Positions 1 to 28,837 of a stretch of 64,000 nt of DNA are shown in pieces. Position numbers and translations under genes: made by a program. The stretch is from a virus. Taxonomy: Duplodnaviria; Caudoviricetes. The notes under the pieces are model-generated. The model made no database searches. It was not told where the DNA came from and worked only from the letters and a program-made list of their open reading frames with translations. The stretch covers positions 1-64,000 of the IMG/VR virus record IMGVR_UViG_2785511464_000001, one strand, 5' to 3'. Each line of letters starts with the position of its first letter. Positions within the stretch are counted from its first letter, which is position 1.

Positions 1-1908
1 TCACTTTAATTCGCTCAACCGTTCTTGATAATATGCCGACCAGTTCTGCTGCTGTAACCAAGGTTTCAGCACCACCAGATCACCGCAATTCACACGTTCC
101 TTGGCGGCCAGAAGAATGGGCGTTATCGCATCAAGTGCGGGGGACGCTGCCTGCTCGAAATGCTGTAAATCTCGCGTCGTTAGGCGATGCTTCATGCCAT
201 AGCGGGCGGGGATGTCCGACTTCGGTGAGTGTCCCATCAGGCGCTTTCGCGTGACGTCCTTGATTTTGGTGTTATCGATCAGATCAGCAAACCAGTGCCT
301 CGTGGAATAGAGTGTTACTTCCTTGCGGGCGATGCCTGTTTTCTTCTTCAGATACTGCCAGCTCTTTGTGATCGGCTGGCCCCAGCGCATTTCGCCATTT
401 GGCTTGGGATAGGGCTCCCATTCCGGGAAGAGATAGGGGCAGCCAAGCTGCTTCAACTCGTCCACCCGCTCAAGGAGACCCAGATCAAGGATCAGTGGGT
501 GAAGGGGGACGACGCGCTGCGACGACGGGGTCTTGAAACGCTTCACATCTTTCTTGGCCACGCGGCCTTTGGAGGGGTCAAAACCTCTGAGGTAGAGGTA
601 GTGAATTCCGTCTCGCTCCGCGATGTCGTTCAGTTCCAGCTGTCCCAGCTCGCCTGGCCGCAGGCCTGTCAAAAGCAACAGAAGGTAGGCCCAGTAAAGG
701 TGCGACTGGATGAAGTATTTTCCTGGTTGCCAGATCCGTTTGTCGCTCTGGCATCCCGTGAAGAGCGGTTGCGAAAAGATTTTCGCGATTTCGCTGTCAT
801 CGAACGAGTCCCGGGGCAGGGAGGTGAGATTGTTTTCACTGACATGGCTGAACACGGGCTTGGGGTGAGGGTAGTGTCCCCGTTCAATCAGCCAGTCAAA
901 GAATTTCGACAGGGCGTTATGATAGCCGTTGCGCAGCCGTGTTTCGGTCAACCGATCAAGGCGCGACCATCCATGCTTCTTTGCATAGAGGTACCTCTCT
1001 GCCAGTGTTTGTGCATGCTCTTTGGGAACGTTGCGCCTGTTTGGAATGTCGGGGAGCATCTGATCGAGCTCGAGCACCTTGCGCTTGTCAAACCTGGCGA
1101 CGACCGGATCATCCATGATGTCGATCAGGAACTGTACGACCAGTTGGATAGCTGAGCGGGCATCCGCGTTGCCGCCATTCGTCACATCCTCTTCAACGTA
1201 TTCCTGCAGCGCCTGAGAGAAGGTGAGCGGATCGGCCTCTGGCGCAGGGGGATGTGCAAAAGGCTCCTCGAGAACGTCGATGGGGACTTCCGGCTCGCTC
1301 GCTGACGGAGTGATGCGGGCTTCACGGGCCATTGGATCATGCCATGCGGCGATTGTATCAGGCTGAGAGGGAATGGCGGGAGAATGATGTGCAGATGCCT
1401 GAAAGCTGGCGGGTACTGCGCCCATTTGGATGGCTGCCTGCATGTCGGCCCTGCCGCGTTCATAAGCTTGAACCCTGTCGCGCTGACGCAGGAACGTCTC
1501 GGCATCCAGATTCTGGTTCACGAAACGGTTCAGCAGGGCGGTGAAGTCAGGCTCGATCATGTCGGGATCGCACTGGGCGGCCAGCGCCCGACGCTTCAGG
1601 TTCTTCAGCATCTCCTCGTAGTTGCGCCGTGCCTGAAGCCGTTCTTCAGAAAGAGGCCATGGATCCAGCAGATATTTTCGCAGTTCGCCCACGTTCTTCT
1701 GAAAGAGCGATACGTAGTTCGCGCTGTCGTTCATTCTGTGAATCCAGCCCAGGTGCTCTGAAAGTCGAATACGCGCCTGACGATAGTCGCTGGTTCTTAA
1801 CGAGACTCTATAGAGCTGCTTGCCCAGGAGGAGGGATGTGACGGGATTCAACCGAACCTGAAGGTAATAGCGTCCTTCACGGCGAGAAAGGTAGGAAGCG
1901 CAAGCCAT
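1..1908 (-). CDS. int: Tyrosine recombinase/integrase with DUF6538-like N-terminal domain
   Basis: Catalytic set TGLRPGE (R), FKT (K), YSTRH, LMGH, terminal Y (ARYG); N-terminus RREGRYYLQVR...SLRTSD. Confidence 0.92.
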   Translation of the reverse strand: MACASYLSRREGRYYLQVRLNPVTSLLLGKQLYRVSLRTSDYRQARIRLSEHLGWIHRMNDSANYVSLFQKNVGELRKYLLDPWPLSEERLQARRNYEEMLKNLKRRALAAQCDPDMIEPDFTALLNRFVNQNLDAETFLRQRDRVQAYERGRADMQAAIQMGAVPASFQASAHHSPAIPSQPDTIAAWHDPMAREARITPSASEPEVPIDVLEEPFAHPPAPEADPLTFSQALQEYVEEDVTNGGNADARSAIQLVVQFLIDIMDDPVVARFDKRKVLELDQMLPDIPNRRNVPKEHAQTLAERYLYAKKHGWSRLDRLTETRLRNGYHNALSKFFDWLIERGHYPHPKPVFSHVSENNLTSLPRDSFDDSEIAKIFSQPLFTGCQSDKRIWQPGKYFIQSHLYWAYLLLLLTGLRPGELGQLELNDIAERDGIHYLYLRGFDPSKGRVAKKDVKRFKTPSSQRVVPLHPLILDLGLLERVDELKQLGCPYLFPEWEPYPKPNGEMRWGQPITKSWQYLKKKTGIARKEVTLYSTRHWFADLIDNTKIKDVTRKRLMGHSPKSDIPARYGMKHRLTTRDLQHFEQAASPALDAITPILLAAKERVNCGDLVVLKPWLQQQNWSAYYQERLSELK

Positions 1909-9992: not shown

Positions 9993-10624
9993 CGAAGATC
10001 AAGATCAGGAAGAAGCGCGTCGGTCTCAAGAAGGTCAAGCAACGCCTTCCCGTGGAGGAGCGCGCCACCCTTCCTGATTGGGTCGATGTCCCGGAAGCCC
10101 CCACCTACGACCGTCGGAGTGGCGAAGCCCAAGAGTATGATGAGCAGCAGGTTGCTCGGGTCGAGCTCATGATGATGAAGGGTGTGCGCAGCAAGCGTCA
10201 GCTGATGGCTATGCTCGACATCACCGACGGTCGTGCGATGGATCGCTACATACGGCGCATCCACGCACGCTGGGAAATGGTGGGCACGACCCAGGAGTTT
10301 GCCCGACACCGGGGGGAGGGCTTAGCGCGCCTCGACCTGATCGAAAGCGAACTCTGGTCTCGCCTGTCGCAGCTGGAGCAGAAGGCAACACCGCAGGCAC
10401 CCTTGGGTTACCTGAGCGCCATCATGCGGGTCCACGAGCTTCGCTCGGAGCTGCTTGGTCTCACGCCGAAGGTGATCGCGCACATCGGGACGTCCGACGA
10501 CGGCGGATCGGACTTCGCTCGCCGGCTTGCTCAGCACGACCGCCTCACACAACTCGCTGCCCGCATGTCCGCGATGGTGGAAGAACGAATGAAGGTCATC
10601 GATCATGGCGGGGAAACCACGTAA
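9989..10624 (+). CDS. terS: Probable terminase small subunit
   Basis: HTH-like N-terminus, helical body ending R..LLGL; overlaps the start of terL. Confidence 0.6.
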   Translation: MTKIKIRKKRVGLKKVKQRLPVEERATLPDWVDVPEAPTYDRRSGEAQEYDEQQVARVELMMMKGVRSKRQLMAMLDITDGRAMDRYIRRIHARWEMVGTTQEFARHRGEGLARLDLIESELWSRLSQLEQKATPQAPLGYLSAIMRVHELRSELLGLTPKVIAHIGTSDDGGSDFARRLAQHDRLTQLAARMSAMVEERMKVIDHGGETT

Positions 10625-12485
10625 CGTTCCGCAGCGCGTGCTCGATGAGGTCGCGCAGGAGCTGCTGGCCGAGGTGGCGAACGACTATCCCGAAGACCTA
10701 GAGGTCGTGATGTCGTTCCTGTCAGAGGCCGCGCGCAGCCCTGATGCATTCAAGCGCTTGGTTCGGTTCAAGCACGAGCCGGTCGGTCCACGCGAGTTTG
10801 TCGAGGGCAAGGAGTTCATGGGAAAACCGACGGCCCTGTGGCCGTTGGTCATGCGTGAGTTCGAAGAACTCAACAGCGGCAGGTACACCGAAAGCGTGCT
10901 CACGGGCGGTATTGGCGTCGGGAAGACGCACCTGGCCTTGTACACGCAGGCTTATCAGCTCTACCTCCTGTCCTGCATGCGTGACCCTCACGCGGAGTTC
11001 GATCTGGACCCCACGTCCGAGATCGTGATCATCTTCCAGTCGCTCAACAAGCAGCTGGCCGAAGGCGTCGATTACACGCGATTCCGCGCGATGATCGAGA
11101 GCGCCCCTTATTTCAAGAAGCACTTCGCATTCGACACCGACATCACCAGCGAGATGCGCTTTCCGAAACGGATCATCGTCAAGGCGATCACGGGTCAGGA
11201 TACAGGCGCGATTGGTCAGAACGTGATCGGCGGCCTGATTGACGAAGTGAACTTCATGGCCGTGACCGAGAAGTCGAAGCTGTCGAAGGACGGCGAGGTC
11301 CACGATCAGGCCGTCAAGAATTACAACTCGATTGCACGACGCCGCGAGAGCCGCTTCATGCAGCTCGGCGCACTGCCGGGCATGCTTTGCCTTGTCTCCT
11401 CCAGAAACTATCCGGGCCAGTTCACCGACAAGAAGGAGGAAGAGGCCCGGACGAACCCGCGCATCTTCATCTACGACAAGAGGACTTGGGAGGTCCGACC
11501 CGAGAAGTTCACGAGCGAAAGGTTCCGGGTCTTTGTCGGGGACGCAACCCGGAAGCCGTATATCCTCACCGACGACACAGACGTCGCGATGCAGGATGAG
11601 CACTTGGTGGTGGACGTCCCCACGGAGTACCGGCACCAGTTCGAGACCGATCTGCTGGCCGCGCTGCGGGACGTGGCCGGCGTGGCTACCCTGGCGCTGC
11701 ATCCGTTCATGCACAACACCGAAGCCGTGACCTCTTGCTTCGGCACCGTTGAGTCCATCGGGTCGCGGGAAGACGTGGACTTCGTGGCCACCAAGCTGAA
11801 GCTATACCCCAAGAGGATCGCGAACCCGCAGGAGCCCCGACTGGCGCACGTCGATCTGGCGTACTCGAAGGACAGTGCCGGCGTCAGCATCGGCCATGTC
11901 GTAGGCTTCAAGGAGTGTAGCCGGGGCGATTACGTCGAGACCCTGCCGATCATCCGCTTCGACCTCGTGCTTGAGGTGAAGGTGCCTCGGGGCGGGGAGA
12001 TCGAGCTGTCGAACATCAGAAAGCTGCTTTACACGCTGCGGGACAAGATGGGGCTCCCAATCAAGTGGGTCAGCTTCGACGGGTTCCAGAGCCGAGACAG
12101 CATGCAAATCCTCTACCAGCAGGGTTTCGTGGTGCATTACCAGTCGATGGACAAGGACACCGACGCGTACGACTTCACCAAGCTTGCGTTCATGGACGGG
12201 CGCGTGCAGGCTCCGGCCCACCCGAAGGCCATGCGTGAAATGATCACCCTGGAGATCAACACCAAGGATCGCGTCATCGACCACCCGCCGCACGGCTCCA
12301 AGGACGTGGCCGACAGTATGGCCGGCGTCGTCTACGGTCTCACGATCCTCCGGGAAATCTGGCTCCGCTACAACATTCCCATGCAGAAGGTGCCGCGTCT
12401 GGTTCAGAACAGTAACGAACCCAAGTCCGCCACGAAGATCAAGAAGGGGGCCGGGGTCGATTTCGACGGGATGATCGATGAATAG
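10605..12485 (+). CDS. terL: Terminase large subunit
   Basis: Walker A GGIGVGKT, Walker B GLIDE, nuclease motifs HVDLA, FDGFQS, DHPPHGSKDVAD. Confidence 0.88.
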   Translation: MAGKPRNVPQRVLDEVAQELLAEVANDYPEDLEVVMSFLSEAARSPDAFKRLVRFKHEPVGPREFVEGKEFMGKPTALWPLVMREFEELNSGRYTESVLTGGIGVGKTHLALYTQAYQLYLLSCMRDPHAEFDLDPTSEIVIIFQSLNKQLAEGVDYTRFRAMIESAPYFKKHFAFDTDITSEMRFPKRIIVKAITGQDTGAIGQNVIGGLIDEVNFMAVTEKSKLSKDGEVHDQAVKNYNSIARRRESRFMQLGALPGMLCLVSSRNYPGQFTDKKEEEARTNPRIFIYDKRTWEVRPEKFTSERFRVFVGDATRKPYILTDDTDVAMQDEHLVVDVPTEYRHQFETDLLAALRDVAGVATLALHPFMHNTEAVTSCFGTVESIGSREDVDFVATKLKLYPKRIANPQEPRLAHVDLAYSKDSAGVSIGHVVGFKECSRGDYVETLPIIRFDLVLEVKVPRGGEIELSNIRKLLYTLRDKMGLPIKWVSFDGFQSRDSMQILYQQGFVVHYQSMDKDTDAYDFTKLAFMDGRVQAPAHPKAMREMITLEINTKDRVIDHPPHGSKDVADSMAGVVYGLTILREIWLRYNIPMQKVPRLVQNSNEPKSATKIKKGAGVDFDGMIDE

Positions 12486-13230: not shown

Positions 13231-15222
13231 GTGGATAAGCGAATTTTCAGGTTCTCCCAGAACCATTGCGATTGGGCCGGCGACGATGCGGATGCCAAGA
13301 AAATCCTTGGCGGCAAAGGTGCCGGCCTCGTGCAGATGTGTCGTGCAGACATGCCTGTCCCGCCGGGCTTCACGATCACCACGGAAGTCTGCAACGTCTT
13401 TCTGGCCATCGACCCGGAGCAGGGCAGCATCGGCACGAAGGACGAGTTCCTTGACCACCTCATGCAGGGCGTTGCGGAGCATGACCAGTGGCTGAGCACC
13501 GAGTTCGGGTTCACGCCCCTCGTGTCCGTGCGCTCAGGCGCACCGATCTCGATGCCCGGTATGATGGATACGATCCTGAATGTCGGCCTGACGGACGAGA
13601 CGCTTCCCGAATGGGAGGATCGCATCGGACAGCGCGCCGCGCTCGACAGCTATCGCCGCCTCATCCAGATGCTCGGAGCCACGGCCTATGGCGTCCCCAT
13701 GCCGCTGTTTGACGAGCACCTTGAGGACATCAAAGAGACCGCCGGGGTCTCCGACGACAAGGAGCTGACCGTTACGGACCTCCAAGAGCTCATCGAGTGC
13801 TACAAGATGGTGTTTCAGGCGGTCGTGCAGCATGCGTTTCCGCAGAGTCGCACAGAGCAGCTGCGCGCCGCCGTGCGGGCCGTGTTCGATAGTTGGATGA
13901 ATGAGCGCGCCATCGAATACCGGAAGCTCAATCAGATCGACGGGGCGATGGGCACCGCCGTGAATATTCAGGCGATGGTCTTCGGCAACATGGGTGACGA
14001 TAGCGGGTCAGGCGTGGCGTTCACCCGAGACCCTTCGACGGGCGAGAACCACACGATGGGCGAGTACCTGCACAACGCGCAGGGTGAGGACGTGGTGGCG
14101 GGTATCCGAACACCGTACTCGCTGGACGAACTCTTTGAGACGAAGAGCCCGCCGTGGGCCACGGAGTTCTGTACGCTGTGCTCCGATCTGGAAGATATGT
14201 ACGACGACATGGTTGACTTGGAGTTCACCGTTCAGCAGGGCAAGCTGTGGTTGCTCCAGAGCCGAGTTGGGAAGCGCTCCGCGCGCGCCGCCTTCAAGAT
14301 CGCCGCCGATCTGGTGGAGGAAGGTGTGATCGACAGGGGTGTGGCCCGGTCCCGGCTGACGGCACAGCAGTTCAAGACGGTGCGCAGGCCGACGATTGAC
14401 CCGTCGTTTGACGTGCCCCCGGCGCTCGTTGGACTGCCTGCGTGCCCCGGCGTCGTGACAGGCGTGCCCGTTCTCTCGTCGAAGGATGCAATTAATTGCA
14501 ATGAACCGTGCATCCTGATCACCAACGAGACGACGCCAGACGACATCGGAGGCATGAACGCCGCCGTGGGCGTGCTGACGAAGACTGGTGGTGCCACCAG
14601 CCACGCGGCAGTCGTTGCTCGGGCGATGGACAAGGCTTGTGTGGTTGGTTGCACCGGGCTCGATATTCTTGGCGACTGGACGGACGTGACGAAGGTCACA
14701 ATCGACGGGGCGACCGGCAGAGTCTGGTTCAATGTCGATGTTCCCGTGATCGACAGTTCCGATGCAAAGGAAGTCGCCACCGTGATGGGGTGGTGTATGG
14801 AGGTTCTGGGCTGCTGTGAGGCGGCAGTGGTCGATCTTGGCGCAGACAAGCCGCACACGATCATGGCCGCACACTGGTGGGGCAACGAAGATGTTCTGAA
14901 CGCAGTCCTTGACGGAATTGCCGAGCTGCCGAGCAGGCAGCACGTCACGCTCGACACGCGGTCGCCGAACGATCTGGCACCGTTCTGTGACTACATGCTG
15001 GCGGACTGCTTCGGCGAAACTGCGCCCGATCATGAGTTCAAGGAGGTCATAATCAGTGTTCTGAAGCAGAGGAGCAAAGAGCTGAAGGGACTGTCCCTCG
15101 CACCGTGGGAGGATATGCCGGAGCTCTACTCTGAAGGGTTCACGCCCGCTGGCGCAGGGTCGCAACACGTACCATTGGCCGTGCCCGCTGACTATGCCGC
15201 CTTCTCCGTTCTGGGTCGGTGA
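13231..15222 (+). CDS. PPDK-like dikinase with ATP-grasp and phospho-His domains but no pyruvate-binding barrel
   Basis: LGGKG, VSVRSGA..SMPGMMDT, QAMVFGN, GEDVVAG, DLEFT, LQSR, GGATSHAAVVAR; 663 aa, with only about 160 aa after the His domain. Confidence 0.9.
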   Translation: MDKRIFRFSQNHCDWAGDDADAKKILGGKGAGLVQMCRADMPVPPGFTITTEVCNVFLAIDPEQGSIGTKDEFLDHLMQGVAEHDQWLSTEFGFTPLVSVRSGAPISMPGMMDTILNVGLTDETLPEWEDRIGQRAALDSYRRLIQMLGATAYGVPMPLFDEHLEDIKETAGVSDDKELTVTDLQELIECYKMVFQAVVQHAFPQSRTEQLRAAVRAVFDSWMNERAIEYRKLNQIDGAMGTAVNIQAMVFGNMGDDSGSGVAFTRDPSTGENHTMGEYLHNAQGEDVVAGIRTPYSLDELFETKSPPWATEFCTLCSDLEDMYDDMVDLEFTVQQGKLWLLQSRVGKRSARAAFKIAADLVEEGVIDRGVARSRLTAQQFKTVRRPTIDPSFDVPPALVGLPACPGVVTGVPVLSSKDAINCNEPCILITNETTPDDIGGMNAAVGVLTKTGGATSHAAVVARAMDKACVVGCTGLDILGDWTDVTKVTIDGATGRVWFNVDVPVIDSSDAKEVATVMGWCMEVLGCCEAAVVDLGADKPHTIMAAHWWGNEDVLNAVLDGIAELPSRQHVTLDTRSPNDLAPFCDYMLADCFGETAPDHEFKEVIISVLKQRSKELKGLSLAPWEDMPELYSEGFTPAGAGSQHVPLAVPADYAAFSVLGR

Positions 15223-22106: not shown

Positions 22107-23987
22107 ATGAGCGAAGAGAACAACGGGCAGGGAAAGCCCCAGACGCAGGTGTTGCGTCTGGTATCTGTCGATAACAAGATCGCGAAGGCGGACGCCGACA
22201 GCAAGAACGTCGTCCACTCGAACGCCCTCGACCCCGAGGACGAGTACAAGAACTGGTATGTCGGTGGATCGAATGATGCCGGCGTGCTGGAACCCCCGTA
22301 TCCTCTTCGGCATCTGGACCGACTGTCCCAGGAGAACAACGCCCTGTCTCCGTGCATTGAGGCGATGGTCACCAACGTGGACGGCACCGGGTACGACTTC
22401 GAGCGCACAGGGGAAGACGCCGAGACCAGCAAGGACGACGCCAAGATCAAAGAGCTGCGGGAGTTCTTTGACGAGCCGTGGCCGGGTCAGTCCTTCACGA
22501 GCATCCGAAAGCTCCTGCGGCGAGACCTGGAGCGAACCGGAAACGCGTATCTGGAAATCCTTCGCAACGCGCAGGACGAGATCGTGTTCATGCGTCACGT
22601 GGACAGCAAGATGATGCGCCTTGTCAATTTGGACAGCGGCGTCCCGGTGGACCGCAAGGTCAGGCGCAAGGGCCGCGAGGTCACCATCACCATCAAGCAG
22701 CGCGAGCGTAAGTTCGTCCAGCTGCTCAACGGCACCACGCTGGTCTACTTCCGCGAGTTCGGCAGCTCCCGAGACCTCAACAAGAGGACCGCCGCTTGGT
22801 CCGAGAAAGGCCAGCGGCTGCCGGCCAAGGACCGCGCCACCGAGATCATTCACTTTACTGCGCTGCCCGACGCCCACACGCCTTACGGCGTCCCGCGTTG
22901 GATCAGCCAGCTGCCGTCTGTGTTGGGCTCCCGCAAGGCCGAGGAGTACAATCTGGACTTCTTCGACAACGGCGGCATCCCGCCCGTCCTGATCTTGCTT
23001 CAGGGCGGCACGCTCCAGCCTGAAACGAAGGGCGCGCTTGATCTGAAGATGGGCCGGGGAACCGCGTCCAAGAAGAACCGGGTTCAGGTTCTGGAGGTCA
23101 TGCCCTCCGGCGGCACCTTCAACTCCCCCAACCAAGCACGCGTCACCGTCGAGCGGTTCGGAGCCGAGCGGCAGGACGACAGCATGTTCGAGGGATACGA
23201 CGAGAAGTGCGAGACGCGTGTCCGACGGGCCTTCCGCCTTCCACCGATCTTCGTCGGCGCTGCCGAGGACTACTCGTTCGCATCGGCCACGGCCTCTTAC
23301 GCGGTGGCCGAGGCTCAGGTGTTCAAGCCGGAACGGGACGAGTTCGACGAGATCATCAATGTGAAGCTGGTCGATGCCATGGGCTACGACGGTTACCGTC
23401 TGGTCTCCAAGCCGCTGGTCATCGAAGACGCGACCATCAAGCTGCAGGGCATTCAGATGGCGATCTCCACCAACGCCGTTGAGAAGGAAGACGTGCTGTA
23501 CGAGATCAACGAGGCGTCCGGCACCGACATTCGGTACAAGGAGCCCGAGAAGCCCAAGCCTGGCTTCGACGAGGACGGGAACCCGCTGCCTGGCTTCGTG
23601 CCTCCTCAGCCGGATGCTGCCGGCGCTGGAGCGGTGGACGACGAGGGCAACGTCGTTCAGCTCAAGACGAAGACCAATACGGTCTCCACCGACAAGCCGA
23701 CCAGCGAGCCCAACGGGAAGGGGTATACCGGGGCGATCTCCAAGGAGGCTACCACGGCTCTCCGCCTGATGACGTCGCTTCGCAAGCGTGACGTCGAAGG
23801 GGTGATCGCTTTCGCGAAGGTCGCCAACGAGATGACCGGGACGCAGGCCGAGGAGTTCGGTCGCGCGCTGGCCACGGCACGTTTCCCGAATGCCGAACGG
23901 TACGGTCTGGATGACCTGGGTGCCCTCTCTGCGGCCACGATCAATGTGATGGCCGGCCACGGCTGCGGGTGCTCCCATGCCGGTTAA
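22107..23987 (+). CDS. Portal protein (PBSX-like)
   Basis: TGNAYLE, EIIHF, YGVPRW, FFDNGGIP, FRLPPIFVG. Confidence 0.9.
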   Translation: MSEENNGQGKPQTQVLRLVSVDNKIAKADADSKNVVHSNALDPEDEYKNWYVGGSNDAGVLEPPYPLRHLDRLSQENNALSPCIEAMVTNVDGTGYDFERTGEDAETSKDDAKIKELREFFDEPWPGQSFTSIRKLLRRDLERTGNAYLEILRNAQDEIVFMRHVDSKMMRLVNLDSGVPVDRKVRRKGREVTITIKQRERKFVQLLNGTTLVYFREFGSSRDLNKRTAAWSEKGQRLPAKDRATEIIHFTALPDAHTPYGVPRWISQLPSVLGSRKAEEYNLDFFDNGGIPPVLILLQGGTLQPETKGALDLKMGRGTASKKNRVQVLEVMPSGGTFNSPNQARVTVERFGAERQDDSMFEGYDEKCETRVRRAFRLPPIFVGAAEDYSFASATASYAVAEAQVFKPERDEFDEIINVKLVDAMGYDGYRLVSKPLVIEDATIKLQGIQMAISTNAVEKEDVLYEINEASGTDIRYKEPEKPKPGFDEDGNPLPGFVPPQPDAAGAGAVDDEGNVVQLKTKTNTVSTDKPTSEPNGKGYTGAISKEATTALRLMTSLRKRDVEGVIAFAKVANEMTGTQAEEFGRALATARFPNAERYGLDDLGALSAATINVMAGHGCGCSHAG

Positions 23988-25893
23988 GGATGAGGTGTTC
24001 ATCGCCATCGAAGAGGCCGTCGGCGCTGCATTGTCCGGCGGCTGGGCGGACGGGCTCTCCGGCATCGTCGGTCAGCTTTACGACCTGATGGGTCAGCGTC
24101 GCTGGTACGCGGCCCATGAGCTGATCGACACGCTCGATCTGGACGCCGTGGTCCCGCAGTCTCGGGAACAGCTGGAGGAACTGGCGGTTTCCGCCGTTCT
24201 CTTCGGGGCCTCACACGCGGCGGGCGGTCTTGATAAAACATCATACCTGACCGACGGAAAAGCGCTCCCACAGGCCCTCTCGCAGGCTCTCGACCAGCTG
24301 GACGTTGCCTTCAAACACAACATCGCCGAAGAGGTGCGTTGGGAGCTGCACCGCGTCGTCACCGAAATGGAGGAGGAGCAGAAGTATGCCCTCCTACACA
24401 AGGACGACATGTCCCACGCCGATCTCGTTGAGGCCGGCCTGGCGACCCCCGACGAGGGGTTGGGCACCCAGACGCTCTACGTCCACCGCCCCCTCATCAA
24501 TAGCGCGGAGCTGATTGCCTGGGCTCGGGAGCAGGGCTTCGAGAAAACCCTGGAGGCCGCTGACTTCCACGTGACAGTCTGCTTCAGCCGGCAGAAGCTC
24601 GACTGGACGGACACTCCCCCGCTGACCGACGAAGTGTACGCGGTGGGTGGTGTGCGGAAGATCGAACGGTTCGGAAAAGCCATTGTGCTCACGTTCGAGA
24701 GCGCTGAGATCGAGGACCGGCACGAAGAGTTCAAAGCCGCCGGGGCCTCTCACGACTTCCCCGAGTACAACCCGCACGTGACGATCAGCTACGCAGGGGG
24801 TGACTTTGACATCTCGAAGATCGAACCGTTCGAGGAAGAGCTGGTGTTCGGTGCCGAGGAGTTCGCCCCGGTCAAGGAGAACTGGTCGAGCGGGATCAAC
24901 GAACGCTTCGTCACCAAGGCCGAGACGAAGAGCCTGGCGCAGAGGCTCAACGACGCGGTTCTGTCCGGTCGGTCACTGGTCGATGTGAACGCCAACCTGA
25001 CCACCTCCAGACTGATCTCTCTCGGGTTCCTGTCCGAGGCCGTCGAAAAGAACGTGACCACGTATCAGGTGAATGAGGTTCTTGACGACGTGACCTGTGC
25101 CGTCTGCCGCGAGATGCACGGCAAGAGCTTCACCGTCGTCTCGGAGTACAGCAAGATCATGACGGCGCTTTCCACGAGCGACCCCCAGGAGCTTCGGAAC
25201 ATCGCGCCGTGGCCTAAGAACACCAAGGCCGGGCTCGCCGCTCTGCGGGAAATGAACCCGGAGGAGATGCAGCTGGCCGGCTACGGCTCCCCGCCGTATC
25301 ACCCCGGTTGTCGCGGGTTCCTCGTGCAGGATGGCACCGTGACCGTGAGCGTGCCGATGCAGCCGAAACCCGCATTCGTGGATGACGGAAGCTTCGACGG
25401 CCCCAACGGCTTTGACCTGAGTGACGAGGTAGATAACGAAATCCTTCTGAGCAATTCGCTGAAATCCGCGATGAGCGCAGCAGAGGAGGAAGCTTTCCGC
25501 GAGTACACCGAAAATGCCTACCACAGCCTCAACAAGGCTCTGCGCAACGGCGATCCTGTGGACGCCAAGATGGTGTCTTTGCTGGATGGTGTGTTCTCCC
25601 GCGTCTCACTCGACGCCCCGATGGTTGTCTACCGGCAGGTTGACGCAGACACGTACAAACGCGCTATGGCGTCGGAGGTTTTCGAAGACCTCGCCTATGT
25701 GAGCACGACAGCCGACAAGGCCAATCTGAAGGGGAGCAACATCGTGCGAGTGGAGGTTCCGCAGGGATCACGGGCCGTTCCGGTCGGGGCGATCTCCGAG
25801 TACGGGGCCGAGGAAGCCGAATTGTTGCTTGCGCGAGGGTCGAGGTTCCACGTCCGCATGGAGGACGGGGAGATGGTCTGGCGGCTCCTGTAG
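23977..25893 (+). CDS. MuF-like minor head protein with an inserted Acb1-like 2H phosphodiesterase and a C-terminal ADP-ribosyltransferase
   Basis: MuF: CAVCREMHGK, PPYHPGCRG. 2H: FHVTVCFS, YNPHVTISY. ART: YT..Y..LNKALR, VYR, YVSTT, EAELLL.RG. Confidence 0.85.
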   Translation: MPVKDEVFIAIEEAVGAALSGGWADGLSGIVGQLYDLMGQRRWYAAHELIDTLDLDAVVPQSREQLEELAVSAVLFGASHAAGGLDKTSYLTDGKALPQALSQALDQLDVAFKHNIAEEVRWELHRVVTEMEEEQKYALLHKDDMSHADLVEAGLATPDEGLGTQTLYVHRPLINSAELIAWAREQGFEKTLEAADFHVTVCFSRQKLDWTDTPPLTDEVYAVGGVRKIERFGKAIVLTFESAEIEDRHEEFKAAGASHDFPEYNPHVTISYAGGDFDISKIEPFEEELVFGAEEFAPVKENWSSGINERFVTKAETKSLAQRLNDAVLSGRSLVDVNANLTTSRLISLGFLSEAVEKNVTTYQVNEVLDDVTCAVCREMHGKSFTVVSEYSKIMTALSTSDPQELRNIAPWPKNTKAGLAALREMNPEEMQLAGYGSPPYHPGCRGFLVQDGTVTVSVPMQPKPAFVDDGSFDGPNGFDLSDEVDNEILLSNSLKSAMSAAEEEAFREYTENAYHSLNKALRNGDPVDAKMVSLLDGVFSRVSLDAPMVVYRQVDADTYKRAMASEVFEDLAYVSTTADKANLKGSNIVRVEVPQGSRAVPVGAISEYGAEEAELLLARGSRFHVRMEDGEMVWRLL

Positions 25894-25988: not shown

Positions 25989-26687
25989 ATGGATTGGACG
26001 TCAGACGTGTTCCAGGAAAGCCGCAACAGCGCGTGGGGTAACGACGGGTCAGCCGCGACCACTCCGCGCGTTGGTGCGCCCGCCAAGAACACTCCCACCG
26101 TCCAATTCAAAAAAGCCGACGAGGAACAGCAGCTCGTCTACGGCGAAGTGTATGCGCCGACGGTCCCCGACAGCCAGGGTGACTTCATGACCCGTGAGGC
26201 GATCCAAGAGATGGCCCACGGGTTCATGCGTCGCGGTCTGGTGACGAAGATCGACGTCCAGCACACGCGGGAAGAGAGCGGCTGTTACGTGGTCGAGAGT
26301 TTCATTGCCAGGGACGATGATCCGACCTTCATCCCAGGCAGCTGGGTGCTCGGCGTCAAAATCCCCGATCCATCCGTGTGGAACCTCGTGAAGAGTGGTG
26401 AGCTGAACGGCTTCTCGCTCGATGGGCTTGGCGTGCGGGTGGACACGGTTCTGGAAATCAATGTCCCCGAGACCATCACGGGGCAAACAGAAGAAAGCGA
26501 CGGGCACAGGCACACGTTCTTCGTGAAGTACGACGATCAGGGCGCGTTCCTTGGGGGTTGGACCGACGAAGGCCCGGACGGCTTCCGCCACGAAATCAGG
26601 CGCGGAACGCTGACCGAGACTGCCAACGGGCATGCCCACCGCTTCTCATTCGTCGAAGGAGTGCTCGATGCCCGAATTGCGAGTTAA
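25989..26687 (+). CDS. XkdF-like prohead serine protease
   Basis: QLVYGEVYAP..PDSQGD, IDVQH, VVESFI, GSW, VKSGELNGFS. Confidence 0.88.
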   Translation: MDWTSDVFQESRNSAWGNDGSAATTPRVGAPAKNTPTVQFKKADEEQQLVYGEVYAPTVPDSQGDFMTREAIQEMAHGFMRRGLVTKIDVQHTREESGCYVVESFIARDDDPTFIPGSWVLGVKIPDPSVWNLVKSGELNGFSLDGLGVRVDTVLEINVPETITGQTEESDGHRHTFFVKYDDQGAFLGGWTDEGPDGFRHEIRRGTLTETANGHAHRFSFVEGVLDARIAS

Positions 26688-27813
26688 GGCCACCGAGCTC
26701 GTCGGCACCAACGTCGATTTTGTCTCGCTCGTTAAGCGGGGAGCGAACCGCATCCCCTTCCGAATTGTCAAACAAGAGGATGAACCAATGCTTGACCTTG
26801 CCAAAGCCGGTCGCAAGCTTTTCCAGAAGGCGGAGACCACCCCCGAGGTCGTGGCTGCTGTAGTCCCGGCGGGTGTGGATGTGGTGAAGATGGCCGAAGT
26901 CTTCAAGGAAGCCGGCCTCGACCCGAACTTGTTCGTGAAGACGGAAGTGGATGGCGTCGTCACGCTGGCCAAGGCCGACGCCGACAAGGCCGACGGCACC
27001 GTTATCATCAAGACCGGTGACCAGGTGGGTCTCGTCATTTCCGGCCTGAAGAAGGCTTTCGACAGCTACAACGCATCCGGTTCGGACTTCGCCGAGGCAG
27101 TGAAGGCGCAGGGGTTTTATCCCTCCTTCTGCACAGCTCAGGACGTTCTTGGCAGTTGCGTCAGCGTGGCTCTGCACAAGTCCAACACACCTAGTGAGGC
27201 AGCCGAGCGCGTCGCCAAGACCGTCGATGACTTCAGGTCTTACGTCAGCGGACTGGCATCGGCTCTTCCTGCGTCGGCGTTCTACGTTGACCGCTACTAT
27301 TCCGACATCGCGAAGGGCGAAGAAACTGCCCCGGAGCCCGCCGCCAAAGAAGAAGAAGCCGACAAGCTGAAGGCCGAGGCCGACAAGGCAAAGGCTGAAG
27401 AGGCCAAGAAGGCCGAGGATGAAAAGACCACCAAGGCTGACGCCGATGCGGACGCCCCCGTGGAAGAGCCGGTTGCCAAGACCGGAGAGAACGACGCTGG
27501 GTCCGAACCCAACGCCGAGATTGCTGCTCTCAAGAAGTCTCAGGACGAGATCATGGGTGTCCTGAAGGAGCTGCAAAAGTCCGTCTCCACCTCGATCAGC
27601 GGCCTTCAGGCCGAAGTGAAGAAGGAGCTTTCGGGCATCAATACCCGCGTCGAACAGGTGGCCTCGCAGGCCCAGAAAACCGACGCGGCTCTGAACGGCA
27701 CCGTGTTCGCGGAGCCTGATGGTGACAAGCCGGCCCCGCTGGAGAAGCAGGACGGCCATCGCGGAGCGCCCCCGCTCCTCGACACCGCCTATGACCGCCG
27801 CGAAGTCGCTTAA
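26668..27813 (+). CDS. Scaffold-like protein
   Basis: VSLVKRGAN N-terminus, Ala/Glu/Lys-rich coiled coil, between protease and capsid; possible internal start at 26788. Confidence 0.7.
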   Translation: MPELRVKATELVGTNVDFVSLVKRGANRIPFRIVKQEDEPMLDLAKAGRKLFQKAETTPEVVAAVVPAGVDVVKMAEVFKEAGLDPNLFVKTEVDGVVTLAKADADKADGTVIIKTGDQVGLVISGLKKAFDSYNASGSDFAEAVKAQGFYPSFCTAQDVLGSCVSVALHKSNTPSEAAERVAKTVDDFRSYVSGLASALPASAFYVDRYYSDIAKGEETAPEPAAKEEEADKLKAEADKAKAEEAKKAEDEKTTKADADADAPVEEPVAKTGENDAGSEPNAEIAALKKSQDEIMGVLKELQKSVSTSISGLQAEVKKELSGINTRVEQVASQAQKTDAALNGTVFAEPDGDKPAPLEKQDGHRGAPPLLDTAYDRREVA

Positions 27814-27856
27814 TCGCGCGCAACAGCCACACCGAAACCCTTACGAGGAACCTGAA

Positions 27857-28837
27857 ATGTCCAGCAATAGCACCCTCCTTCGCAAGGCCGATCTCGCGAT
27901 TGAAGACCTTCGCGCCGACGGCGGCGAACTGAACCCCGAACAGGGCGCATCGTTCATCCGCAAGCTGATCAAGCAGCCTACGCTCATCCGGCGCTGCCGC
28001 GTTGTCGAGATGCTTGCCTCCAAGCGCAAGATCAACAAGATCGGCTTCGGTCGCCGCATCCTGCGCAAGGCAACGTCCGGCGTCGCCCTCACGCCGGCTC
28101 AGCGTTCCAAGCCCTCGACCGAACAGATCGAGCTCAACTCCAAGGAGCAGATCGCCGAGGTCCGGCTGCCCTACGACGTCCTGGAGGACAACATCGAGCG
28201 TGCGTCTGCCGCGAACAACGAAGGGTCGAACACCGGTCCCGGCGGTCTCCGCCAGACCATCATCGATCTGATCGCGGAGCGCGCGGCACTCGACACCGAA
28301 GAGCTCGGGCTTCTGTCCGACACCGACTACACCAACCCCGGCGACCCGGACGATGAAGAGTTCCTGGCGCAGGGTGACGGTTGGCTGAAGATCGGCAAGA
28401 CCGTTGGCAACGTCTATGACGTGAACAACCAGACGGTATCCAAGACGGTCTTCAAGAACGGCCTGAAGACGATGCCGGTGCAGTTCCAGCGCAACAAGCC
28501 GGCCATCAACCACTTCGTGTCGGTCAACCAGGAGACCGAGTATCGCGACACCCTCGCGGATCGCGGCACCGGCCTGGGCGACAACATGGTGCAGGGTACG
28601 GCTCCGGTCTTCGCCTACGGCTCCCCGGTCAGCGCGGTGTCCCTGATGCCGGAAGACACGGGCATCTACACGGACCCGATGAACCTGATCTTCGGTATCC
28701 AGCGCCAGGTGTCCATGGAGTTCGACAAGGACATCTCCGCACGAGTGTACATCATCGTGCTGACCATGCGTATCGACTTCCAGATCGAAGAAGCCGAGGC
28801 CGCCGTGGTCTACGAGAACATCGCTGACATGCCGTAA
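27857..28837 (+). CDS. Major capsid protein (HK97 fold, XkdG-like)
   Basis: GGELNPEQ..FI, LEDNIE, DGWLK, PMNLIFGIQR; position after the scaffold. Confidence 0.9.
   Translation: MSSNSTLLRKADLAIEDLRADGGELNPEQGASFIRKLIKQPTLIRRCRVVEMLASKRKINKIGFGRRILRKATSGVALTPAQRSKPSTEQIELNSKEQIAEVRLPYDVLEDNIERASAANNEGSNTGPGGLRQTIIDLIAERAALDTEELGLLSDTDYTNPGDPDDEEFLAQGDGWLKIGKTVGNVYDVNNQTVSKTVFKNGLKTMPVQFQRNKPAINHFVSVNQETEYRDTLADRGTGLGDNMVQGTAPVFAYGSPVSAVSLMPEDTGIYTDPMNLIFGIQRQVSMEFDKDISARVYIIVLTMRIDFQIEEAEAAVVYENIADMP

Follow-up and report, generated by a model that had tools for sequence, protein, structure and literature searches.

Within a 95.8-kb provirus of a temperate, siphovirus-type phage, the head genes include one for a protein of 638 amino acids, and the question raised by this locus is whether a minor head protein could bring enzymes into the host together with the phage DNA. 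The window analysed was the stretch of 64,000 nucleotides at positions 1 to 64,000 of the record. A preliminary description had proposed a MuF head protein carrying an Acb1-like phosphodiesterase and an ADP-ribosyltransferase (ART), and every computationally checkable detail of this domain make-up was confirmed. We regard it as probable that the protein is a MuF-family carrier for two enzymes, an Acb1-type phosphodiesterase and an ART, and that it represents a small 'polyvalent' virion protein.

Table 1. Positions of the 638-aa protein gene, its predicted domains and motifs, and the adjoining head genes in the window.
Feature	Position (nt)	Strand	Evidence
Portal protein gene, immediately upstream of the 638-aa gene	22107..23987	+	Pfam Phage_portal E=4.4e-14
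Minor head protein gene, 638 aa (P0001): N-domain / Acb1 / MuF / ART	23977..25893	+
N-terminal all-helical domain, aa 1-142	23977..24402	+	alignment; helices pLDDT >90
Inserted Acb1-family 2H phosphodiesterase domain (predicted), aa 165-305	24469..24891	+	PF23474, Foldseek
First catalytic HxT (predicted), H198-V-T200 (= T4 Acb1 H44/T46)	24568..24576	+	alignment
Second catalytic HxT (predicted), H267-V-T269 (= T4 Acb1 H113/T115)	24775..24783	+	alignment
MuF / SPP1 gp7-type core, aa 314-455	24916..25341	+	PF04233, TIGR01641, PHROG
Disordered linker from MuF core to ART cassette, aa 462-499	25360..25473	+	pLDDT <50
C3/VIP2/Alt-type mono-ADP-ribosyltransferase cassette (predicted), aa 478-638	25408..25890	+	PF03496, fold
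Prohead protease gene, XkdF / S78 type (Peptidase_S78_2)	25989..26687	+	PF14550 E=8.3e-28; phrog_15223 E=8e-75
Major capsid-like structural protein	27719..28837	+	phrog_1623 E=5e-92

A minor head protein next to the portal

The open reading frame was found exactly where it had been placed. Its ATG overlaps the stop of the portal gene (23987) by 11 nt, and the alignment gave the same start position in the homologues. The genes are ordered polA, portal, 638-aa MuF gene, protease, scaffold and capsid, and this order is identical in the nearest provirus (L012). The gene thus lies directly downstream of the portal gene within the head module, the position of MuF / SPP1 gp7-type genes, and the protease that had been described as the next gene is of the XkdF type (Table 1). 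An integrase is encoded at 1-1908 and the record is a provirus, indicating a temperate element. Among the provirus genes none was identified as a CD-NTase, a point against the carrier explanation given above. The AF2 model of the protein had a mean pLDDT of 86.4, and the matches that confirm the described features are far beyond chance.

The helical N-terminal domain is common to all family members in the alignment, with or without Acb1. It matched no known family, nor did tblastn against cultured phages give a match, and it is a candidate for the part that targets the protein to the capsid or portal. The MuF Cys/His motifs that had been noted after the inserted domain were identified as C374-x-x-C377, H381 and H442-P-G-C445-R446, and these Cys, His and Arg residues (CxxC...HPGC) are invariant in 79 of 79 homologues. 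The profile scores of the protein itself over aa 318-446 were below the curated cut-offs, with 17.7 bits (E=0.0064) against 29.6 for PF04233 and 21 bits (E=3.3e-4) against 39.65 for TIGR01641, and in hhalign with Mu gpF the core motif alone aligned. Across the family, PF04233 (Phage_Mu_F) matched 48 of the 81 homologues at E<=0.001 (best 2.3e-7), and the one homologue checked against the curated cut-off, P0084, was just above it with 29.7 bits. The PHROG matches of the protein were to minor head and head morphogenesis families. Homology of the core at the family level therefore supports its predicted membership of the MuF / SPP1 gp7 family of minor head proteins. In SPP1, each capsid contains one to two copies of gp7, which is a portal-binding protein (PMC5576092). 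Such very low copy numbers of gp7-type proteins are a counterpoint to cargo loading.

The two predicted enzymes

An Acb1-like inserted domain with two HxT motifs had been predicted at about 24465-24885, and the Acb1 profile (PF23474) matched at nearly the same positions (Table 1) with E=1.4e-40 and 138.8 bits against a cut-off of 27, covering model positions 1-143 of 144; on DNA the score was 142.1 bits. FBB1 Acb1 (7t26 and 7t27) ranked first and second in Foldseek (TM 0.78 and 0.72, E 5e-7), phage BCSR5 phosphodiesterase was the other top structural neighbour, and the C-terminal domain of the Pam3 portal also matched (E=7.5e-17). The whole protein contains exactly two H-x-[ST] motifs, both within this domain, and the tetrad H198/T200 and H267/T269 aligns with the catalytic His and Thr residues of FBB1 and T4-type Acb1. 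Among the Acb1-bearing homologues, the His and the Thr of the first motif are each present in 46 of 48, and those of the second in 47 and 48 of 50, respectively. The nucleobase-stacking residues of T4-type Acb1 are Y12, W74, F107 and W147 (PMC9117128), with which Y168, F232, F261 and W303 align in sequence; these aromatic positions are conserved, like the catalytic tetrad, in about 45 homologues.

The adenine-contacting E141 of T4 Acb1 corresponds to Ala297, in a column that varies between A, Q, E, S and K across the family, so a substrate range including cGAMP and cA3 should not be assumed. In addition, the Trp-bearing 'lid' is internal and followed by the MuF core instead of forming a free C-terminus. 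Both features bear on substrate specificity and not on membership of the fold. The residues ahead of the domain (aa ~143-163, pLDDT 55-59) form a flexible linker. In the paralogues P0045, P0049, P0056 and P0060 the N-domain is followed by the MuF core with precisely the 2H block missing, and we therefore consider the domain to be a true insertion. Taken together, alignment and model support the prediction that the domain is a 2H phosphodiesterase of the Acb1 type whose catalytic tetrad is intact.

Homology to the nearest relatives stops after aa ~456, where the alignment breaks, and a C-terminal cassette follows a disordered linker. Here an ART domain with R-STT-ExE motifs had been reported at about 25470-25890, in agreement with the match to PF03496 (ADPrib_exo_Tox) at aa 494-627 (nt 25456-25857), which had an E-value of 4.2e-19 and 69.1 bits against a cut-off of 23.4. 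The motifs are R523 (LNKALR), R553 (VVYR), S576-T-T and E613-A-E615; in an alignment of 21-22 ART sequences R553, S576 and E615 were invariant and R523 and E613 nearly so. In mono-ADP-ribosyltransferases the ExE motif implies arginine specificity. The domain model had a pLDDT of 88.9, and its best structure matches were 8za7_B, CPILE-a and VIP2, with VIA Z 18.7/18.6/18.1 and rmsd 2.3-2.4 over 156 residues. The wider set of matches (8za7_B, 5gtt, 1qs1, 1r45, 4fxq, 1ojz and 2j3v) had Z 18.7-16.4 and rmsd 2.3-2.6 over 154-159 residues, and C3bot2 was also among the matches with Z 18-19 over 156 residues. The BFVD neighbours of the model were minor capsid, head-morphogenesis, portal and Alt proteins. 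These data support a predicted complete ART fold with intact R-S-ExE motifs. The nearest counterparts of the cassette are carried by an unrelated MuF protein (P0149, 52% identity) and by a Mu-type portal (P0180, 45% identity).

Proposed virion cargo and other explanations

Judged by their alignments, the homologues are a modular family: some have the Acb1 insert and others do not, and their C-termini are exchanged. The order Acb1-MuF-ART recurs in about seven further protein clusters, and Acb1 and ART occur together in at least ten different proteins (P0001, P0008, P0016, P0018, P0082, P0084, P0087, P0089, P0101 and P0161, the ART call being sub-threshold in P0089), with ART cassettes that were independently acquired. 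Acb1 domains are also found on the portal C-termini of the cultured phages Pam3 (8hds) and phiPSA1 and of Rhizobium phages, and in portal-Acb1-MuF (P0200) and portal-Acb1-Zeta (P0197) fusions. Attachment to portals and MuF proteins is thus widespread in the Acb1 family, and one of these portals has a solved structure. Portals are not ejected, and as a counterpoint the portal-Acb1 fusions argue for location in the capsid but, taken alone, not for delivery. With two effector domains on one polypeptide encoded in a head module, the 638-aa protein fits the description of a polyvalent virion effector by Iyer et al., 2017.

In the cargo explanation the protein would be made late and enter the procapsid via its portal-associated MuF part. 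The neighbouring prohead protease may cut it at the linkers, and when the virion next infects a cell the protein would be ejected together with the DNA. In the infected cell the phosphodiesterase could linearise cyclic di- or trinucleotide immune signals, of the CBASS type and perhaps of other types, through acid-base catalysis by the HxT/HxT tetrad without a metal, and the ART may modify host proteins at arginines with host NAD+ as substrate, as T4 Alt does. T4 Alt is described as head-packaged and injected in the passages of PMC5512222 that deal with it. From the precedents of SPP1 gp7 and T4 Alt and from the portal and MuF fusions we infer that both enzymes would be delivered with the DNA before phage gene expression.

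An alternative that we consider rather unlikely is that the phosphodiesterase acts mainly late, in the producing cell, and that its fusion to a head protein mainly ensures co-production with the structural proteins that trigger CBASS-type sensors. The sensor triggers would then be capsid, protease and terminase, and packaging would be incidental or serve the ART alone; such late action is compatible with the cargo explanation. The gene lies within the late head operon and adjoins the prohead protease, many Acb1 fusions are on portals, which remain in the capsid, and CBASS is activated by virion-assembly proteins and phage proteases according to the relevant parts of 10.1101/2023.05.21.541620 and PMC12991175. 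However, a separate late gene would be enough for co-expression, the flexible linker ahead of the Acb1 domain speaks against this explanation, and cargo loading better fits both the recurrent joining of Acb1 to capsid-interior proteins of two kinds and its co-occurrence with injected Alt-type ARTs.

It is unlikely, in our estimation, that the two enzymes form a coupled, pre-formed counter-defence pair that is injected together. In such a pair, and ahead of all phage gene expression, the phosphodiesterase would remove cyclic-nucleotide alarm signals while the ART would ADP-ribosylate some component of an NAD+/nucleotide-based defence, either the same one or one acting in parallel. The co-occurrence of Acb1 with independent ART cassettes is compatible with selection for the pair, but the rank of ART as the commonest domain of polyvalent proteins accounts for it just as well.

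We give little credence to the protein being a MuF polymorphic toxin, as described by Jamet et al., 2017 and exemplified by Bxa, in which the ART would not be a host-takeover enzyme but a toxin against bacteria or the host that, once released or delivered, harms cells without immunity. The variable C-terminus on a temperate phage and the evident swapping of C-terminal cassettes agree with this, as do the documented MuF-ART toxins EFV and Bxa (PMC5576092, PMC11699363) and, among the top structure matches, 8za7_B and 6drh_B, which are ART toxins solved with their immunity proteins. However, the small immunity ORF expected immediately downstream is lacking: in line with the preliminary description, the 95-nt gap before the protease encodes no such candidate in its ORF list. 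Neither an ADP-ribosylhydrolase (ARH) nor a Macro domain gene was found anywhere in the 95.8-kb provirus, and a lethal injected toxin would be at odds with lysogeny.

Equally doubtful is a 2H domain not directed at signalling, such as a Usb1-like RNase, an RNA-repair CPDase or an enzyme for ADP-ribose-derived cyclic phosphates, with RNA ends, 2',3'-cyclic phosphates or cyclic phosphates linked to ART chemistry as substrates: the PHROG label of the family ('RNA ligase'), the unconserved E141 equivalent, the RNase role first proposed for 2H-MuF fusions in the relevant passages of Iyer et al., 2017 and sub-threshold matches to 2_5_RNA_ligase2, LigT_PEase and 2H-SAK point to it, but these matches reach at most 19 bits against 138.8 for Acb1, in structure the domain is closest to Acb1 and the BCSR5 phosphodiesterase, conservation extends to the four stacking aromatic positions and the lid Trp, and the annotated parts of the window showed no RNA ligase partner.

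Comparison with known systems

The idea of head-packaged 2H and ART effectors is already in print. In the passages concerned, Iyer et al., 2017 (PMC5512222) and 2022 (PMC9503650) describe 2H-MuF, 2H-portal and MuF-ART (Alt/VIP2-type) fusions, which they predict to be packaged in the head and injected, with 2H acting against nucleotide-based immune signalling. Like the 638-aa protein, their polyvalent proteins have several effector domains on one polypeptide encoded among head genes. The exact order of N-domain, Acb1 insert, MuF and ExE-ART is absent from those passages, where 2H is a terminal add-on, whereas here it is inserted inside the carrier. Our literature search found no experimental test of such fusion proteins, and for pre-loading of an Acb1-type enzyme into the capsid it found computational predictions and no experiment. 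The protein is compact, both active sites appear intact in the alignments and it belongs to an apparently complete temperate phage, which makes it a convenient model for virion-cargo delivery of anti-signalling enzymes, and also for release of enzymes by a prohead protease and for the role of an injected ART in an alphaproteobacterial-type host.

Known work on Acb1 all concerns free enzymes made after the onset of infection. As a counterpoint to early delivery, structural proteins often trigger CBASS at a late stage, when a newly made enzyme would be equally useful. The Acb1 proteins of T4 and FBB1 (Hobbs et al., 2022, PMC9117128; 7t26, 7t27) share with the insert the 2H fold, the HxT/HxT tetrad, the four aromatic stacking positions and the lid Trp. 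They are free-standing and of about 150 aa, whereas the insert is embedded in a head protein and has Ala in place of E141. In the T4-like phage SP18 the acb1 gene is beside gp57A and not among head genes, and Hobbs et al. mention neither Acb1 fusions nor virion association.

The closest 2H relatives in sequence, with 37-47% identity, are the portal-Acb1 fusions (Pam3 gp3 8hds, phiPSA1 gp44 and Rhizobium RHEph/RHph), in which 2H is likewise attached to a capsid-interior protein. Their carrier is a portal, present in 12 copies, not ejected and without an ART, whereas that of the 638-aa protein is MuF; the Acb1 domain is unremarked in the Pam3 structure paper. T4 Alt and the MuF-ARTs (E. faecalis EFV toxin, Microbacterium phage Percival and Bxa; PMC5576092) resemble the ART cassette as R-S-ExE mono-ARTs of C3/VIP2 fold that are borne on head proteins or packaged in the head. 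With ARTs of solved structure or from cultured phages the cassette shares only about 15-25% sequence identity, its nearest relatives, those of P0149 and P0180, lying in uncultured MuF and Mu-portal fusions, and Bxa and most MuF toxins have an immunity gene, unlike the 638-aa gene. Finally, the T7-like ejectosome protein Gp15 inhibits CBASS (bioRxiv 10.1101/2025.07.23.666291). Gp15 is unrelated to the 638-aa protein in sequence and fold and blocks the CapV effector stoichiometrically, without degrading the signal, but it provides a precedent for a virion-borne, ejected anti-CBASS protein.

The minor head gene and its provirus

Based on domain searches, structure modelling and comparison with homologues, we established the identity and integrity of both enzyme domains, the 2H phosphodiesterase (Acb1) and the ADP-ribosyltransferase (ART), and of the MuF carrier in the minor head protein P0001. 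The ORF is real, and the preliminary description had placed its domains correctly to within a few codons. A pseudogene, a frameshift or a chimeric ORF was ruled out by a single open frame and a confident model, and the homologue P0008, which is collinear with P0001 over 98% of its length, also supports an intact ORF.

Features of the provirus, of P0001 and of related portals
Feature	Position	Strand	Evidence or remark
Integrase gene	1-1908	-	left end of provirus
Portal gene	22107-23987		upstream of P0001 gene; Phage_portal, E=4.4e-14
P0001 minor head gene	23977-25893	+	intact ORF, 638 aa; ATG inside portal gene end
XkdF/S78-type prohead protease gene	25989-26687		95 nt past P0001 gene; E=8.3e-28
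Scaffold-like ORF	26632-27813		after prohead protease
Major-capsid-like protein	27719-28837		phrog_1623, E=5e-92
N-domain, all-helical	aa 1-142		AlphaFold2 model
Low-confidence linker	between N-domain and alpha/beta domain		AlphaFold2 model
Alpha/beta domain (Acb1 region)	aa 164-311		AlphaFold2 model
Acb1 domain (PF23474)	aa 165-305		Pfam E=1.4e-40, entire model covered, well above cut-off
Second region, mainly helical (MuF core)	aa 320-455		AlphaFold2 model
Disordered stretch	aa 462-499		pLDDT <50
C-terminal alpha/beta domain (ART)	after disordered stretch		AlphaFold2 model
ADPrib_exo_Tox domain (PF03496)	aa 494-627		Pfam E=4.2e-19, well above cut-off
Pam3 portal, Acb1-like 2H domain	PDB 8hds_A, residues ~451-619		profile E=9.7e-33
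phiPSA1 portal	L011 (related locus):3819-5621		ends in Acb1-like 2H domain
Rhizobium phage RHph_I72 portal	L001 (related locus):2627-4465		ends in Acb1-like 2H domain

The provirus measures 95.8 kb and is rated 97% complete in IMG/VR, the window covering its first 64 kb, and the P0001 protein cluster was found on a 3.98-Mb contig. Besides the integrase it encodes ParB, DNA polymerase A, a tape measure, tail proteins, an endolysin and a DnaB-type helicase, and is therefore a temperate siphovirus-type element. Since the named relatives of P0001 are from Brucella, Aquamicrobium and Sinorhizobium, a host within the Hyphomicrobiales is suggested. No CD-NTase (SMODS) was found in a search confined to the provirus, and a PADLOC run gave no match.

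As listed, the scaffold-like and capsid ORFs overlap by 95 nt. The real capsid start probably lies further downstream than 27719, because the PHROG match of this protein begins only at residue 47. Upstream of the head genes, at a spot where the large terminase might lie, there is a 626-aa ORF (10605-12485, +) with no match in PHROG or NCBIfam. For a 663-aa protein (13231-15222, +), the match to models of pyruvate phosphate dikinase is confined to the first ~550 model positions (TIGR01828, with E=8e-167 and below cut-off).

Domains of P0001

The AlphaFold2 model of P0001 was built on 81 homologues and had a mean pLDDT of 86.4. An Acb1-like domain with two HxT motifs ahead of the MuF Cys/His motifs, and a C-terminal R-STT-ExE ART, had been noticed earlier from the sequence, and Pfam identified both. 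Foldseek, which had been named as a check, agreed, as the P0001 model retrieved FBB1 Acb1 as the top match in the PDB (7t26, TM 0.78), with ARTs of the C3, VIP2 and iota types ranking next. The N-domain gave no tblastn match in cultured phages.

The only two H-x-[ST] motifs of P0001, H198-V-T200 and H267-V-T269, are both within the Acb1 domain. In an alignment to the T4-type Acb1 SP18 gp57B, with key residues taken from Hobbs et al. (PMC9117128), H198/T200/H267/T269 correspond to the catalytic tetrad, and Y168, F232, F261 and W303 to the stacking aromatics Y12, W74, F107 and W147. Tetrad and aromatic positions are nearly invariant among the ~47 Acb1-bearing homologues. In contrast, the adenine-contacting Glu of Acb1 (E141) is Ala297 in P0001, at a position variable across the family, and the Trp-bearing lid, C-terminal in T4-type Acb1, is internal. 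We accept Acb1-family membership and the catalytic mechanism for P0001, but because of these two differences no particular substrate list.

P0001 itself scored below cut-off against Phage_Mu_F (17.7 bits) and TIGR01641 SPP1 gp7 (21 bits), over the same stretch. Phage_Mu_F was matched by 48 of the 81 homologues (best E=2.3e-7), and MuF membership rests on these matches, since hhalign of the family profile with Mu gpF was negligible (probability 0.3%, only the core hallmark motif aligned). The PHROG matches of P0001 were to minor-head and head-morphogenesis families, and its gene occupies the usual muf position. No solved MuF structure was among the results of the sequence searches or of the fold search with the full-length model. 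The MuF core (aa 314-455) is the best-conserved part of the family, with the motifs C374-x-x-C377 and H442-P-G-C445; C374, C377, H442, C445 and R446 are present in 79 of 79 sequences. The invariance of the four Cys/His residues suggests that the MuF core of this lineage is a variant that binds zinc. The core (at 24916-25341 in P0001) has C-x-x-C and H-P-x-C in this lineage, at sites that read R-P-x-H in Mu gpF.

The ART motifs are R523 (LNKALR), R553 (VVYR, first strand), S576-T-T and E613-A-E615. Folded by itself, the cassette (aa 478-638) reached a pLDDT of 88.9 and matched 8za7_B, CPILE-a, VIP2, C3bot2, Certhrax, C3stau2 and C2-I in structure. As the alignments span 154-159 residues at Z 16-19 (rmsd 2.3-2.6), the modelled ART fold is entire and no remnant.

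Exchange of the Acb1 and ART modules

In a 16-sequence alignment of the P0001 family, the N-domain was found in every member and the MuF core was invariant. The Acb1 block was present in some members and cleanly missing from P0045, P0049, P0056 and P0060, and the C-terminus was missing or short (P0002, P0003, P0005), consisted of an ART, or carried a different unrelated domain. The nearest provirus (L012) has 67% identity and the same synteny, without the ART. Neighbourhoods of relatives were taken from IMG/VR and GTDB loci; in the related-locus search of genome contigs P0001 alone retrieved none, and the alignment query retrieved 7 loci, with no triple fusion of Acb1, MuF and ART among them. 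An exhaustive search over 1.84 billion representatives yielded 3865 relatives of P0001. Other Acb1-MuF-ART proteins are P0008, P0016, P0018, P0082, P0084 and the 2281-aa P0087 (ART-PolyVal, Acb1, MuF, two ARTs). This order is uncommon, with ~7 clusters at 50% identity, and not unique to P0001. In P0075 (748 aa) a MuF/ART part is joined to MFS/sugar-transporter Pfam domains, probably a fusion produced by gene calling or assembly and no real architecture.

The P0001 ART is only 18-29% identical to those of the five single-carrier triple fusions, whereas it has 52% identity to the ART of P0149, a different and clearly MuF-positive carrier without Acb1, and 45% to the ART that P0180 carries on a Mu-type portal. 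These identities indicate that the ART cassette was gained independently and, as judged from sequence, circulates among capsid-interior carriers. When only the ART region was used in a word-indexed search, nothing but the query came back, and P0149 and P0180 needed the exhaustive search. The Acb1 domain behaves in a similar way. Acb1-like 2H domains are found at portal C-termini of cultured phages (Pam3, phiPSA1, Rhizobium and Synechococcus phages), and other carriers combine portal-Acb1-MuF (P0200), portal-Acb1-Zeta toxin (P0197), Acb1-DUF2213 (P0143), Acb1-topoisomerase IB (P0168), ART-PolyVal x2-Acb1 (P0161) and Acb1 with three ARTs (P0101).

Proposed delivery and known systems

The MuF part would bring P0001 into the procapsid, from which it would come out with the DNA, and the adjoining prohead protease may cut both flexible linkers. 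In work by Vinga et al. in 2006, SPP1 gp7 is said to exit the capsid together with the DNA. The phosphodiesterase would then cut cyclic di- or tri-nucleotide signals and the ART would modify arginines on host proteins, the ExE motif of ARTs being associated with arginine specificity. We infer delivery from three precedents: capsids contain 1-2 copies of the portal-binding protein SPP1 gp7 (PMC5576092), T4 Alt is packaged in the head and injected (PMC5512222), and CBASS can be inhibited by a virion ejection protein (bioRxiv 10.1101/2025.07.23.666291). A serious rival, although a partial one, is that the phosphodiesterase acts late, inside the producing cell, as structural proteins trigger CBASS; the portal-Acb1 fusions, not ejectable unless cleaved, leave room for this.

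For the ART, a role as classic polymorphic toxin is disfavoured. The earlier observation that the protease comes next, with no immunity-like ORF in between, was confirmed among the ORFs listed for the gap, and no ADP-ribosylhydrolase or Macro domain was detected across the provirus, which argues for an Alt-like role.

Neither fusions nor virions are mentioned in Hobbs et al. 2022 (PMC9117128) or in a preprint of 2025 that deals with viral 2H phosphodiesterases, and no experiment on a packaged Acb1 turned up in our literature search. Iyer et al. 2017 (PMC5512222) describe 2H domains joined to MuF or portal domains. Iyer et al. 2022 (PMC9503650) again take such fusions as a sign that the proteins are packaged in the head and injected to act against signalling by SMODS, cyclic mononucleotides and CRISPR, and report many Alt/VIP2 ARTs joined to MuF; MuF-ART toxins were described by Jamet et al. 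2017 (PMC5576092). P0001 belongs to a kind already described computationally, and is of use mainly as a compact experimental model.
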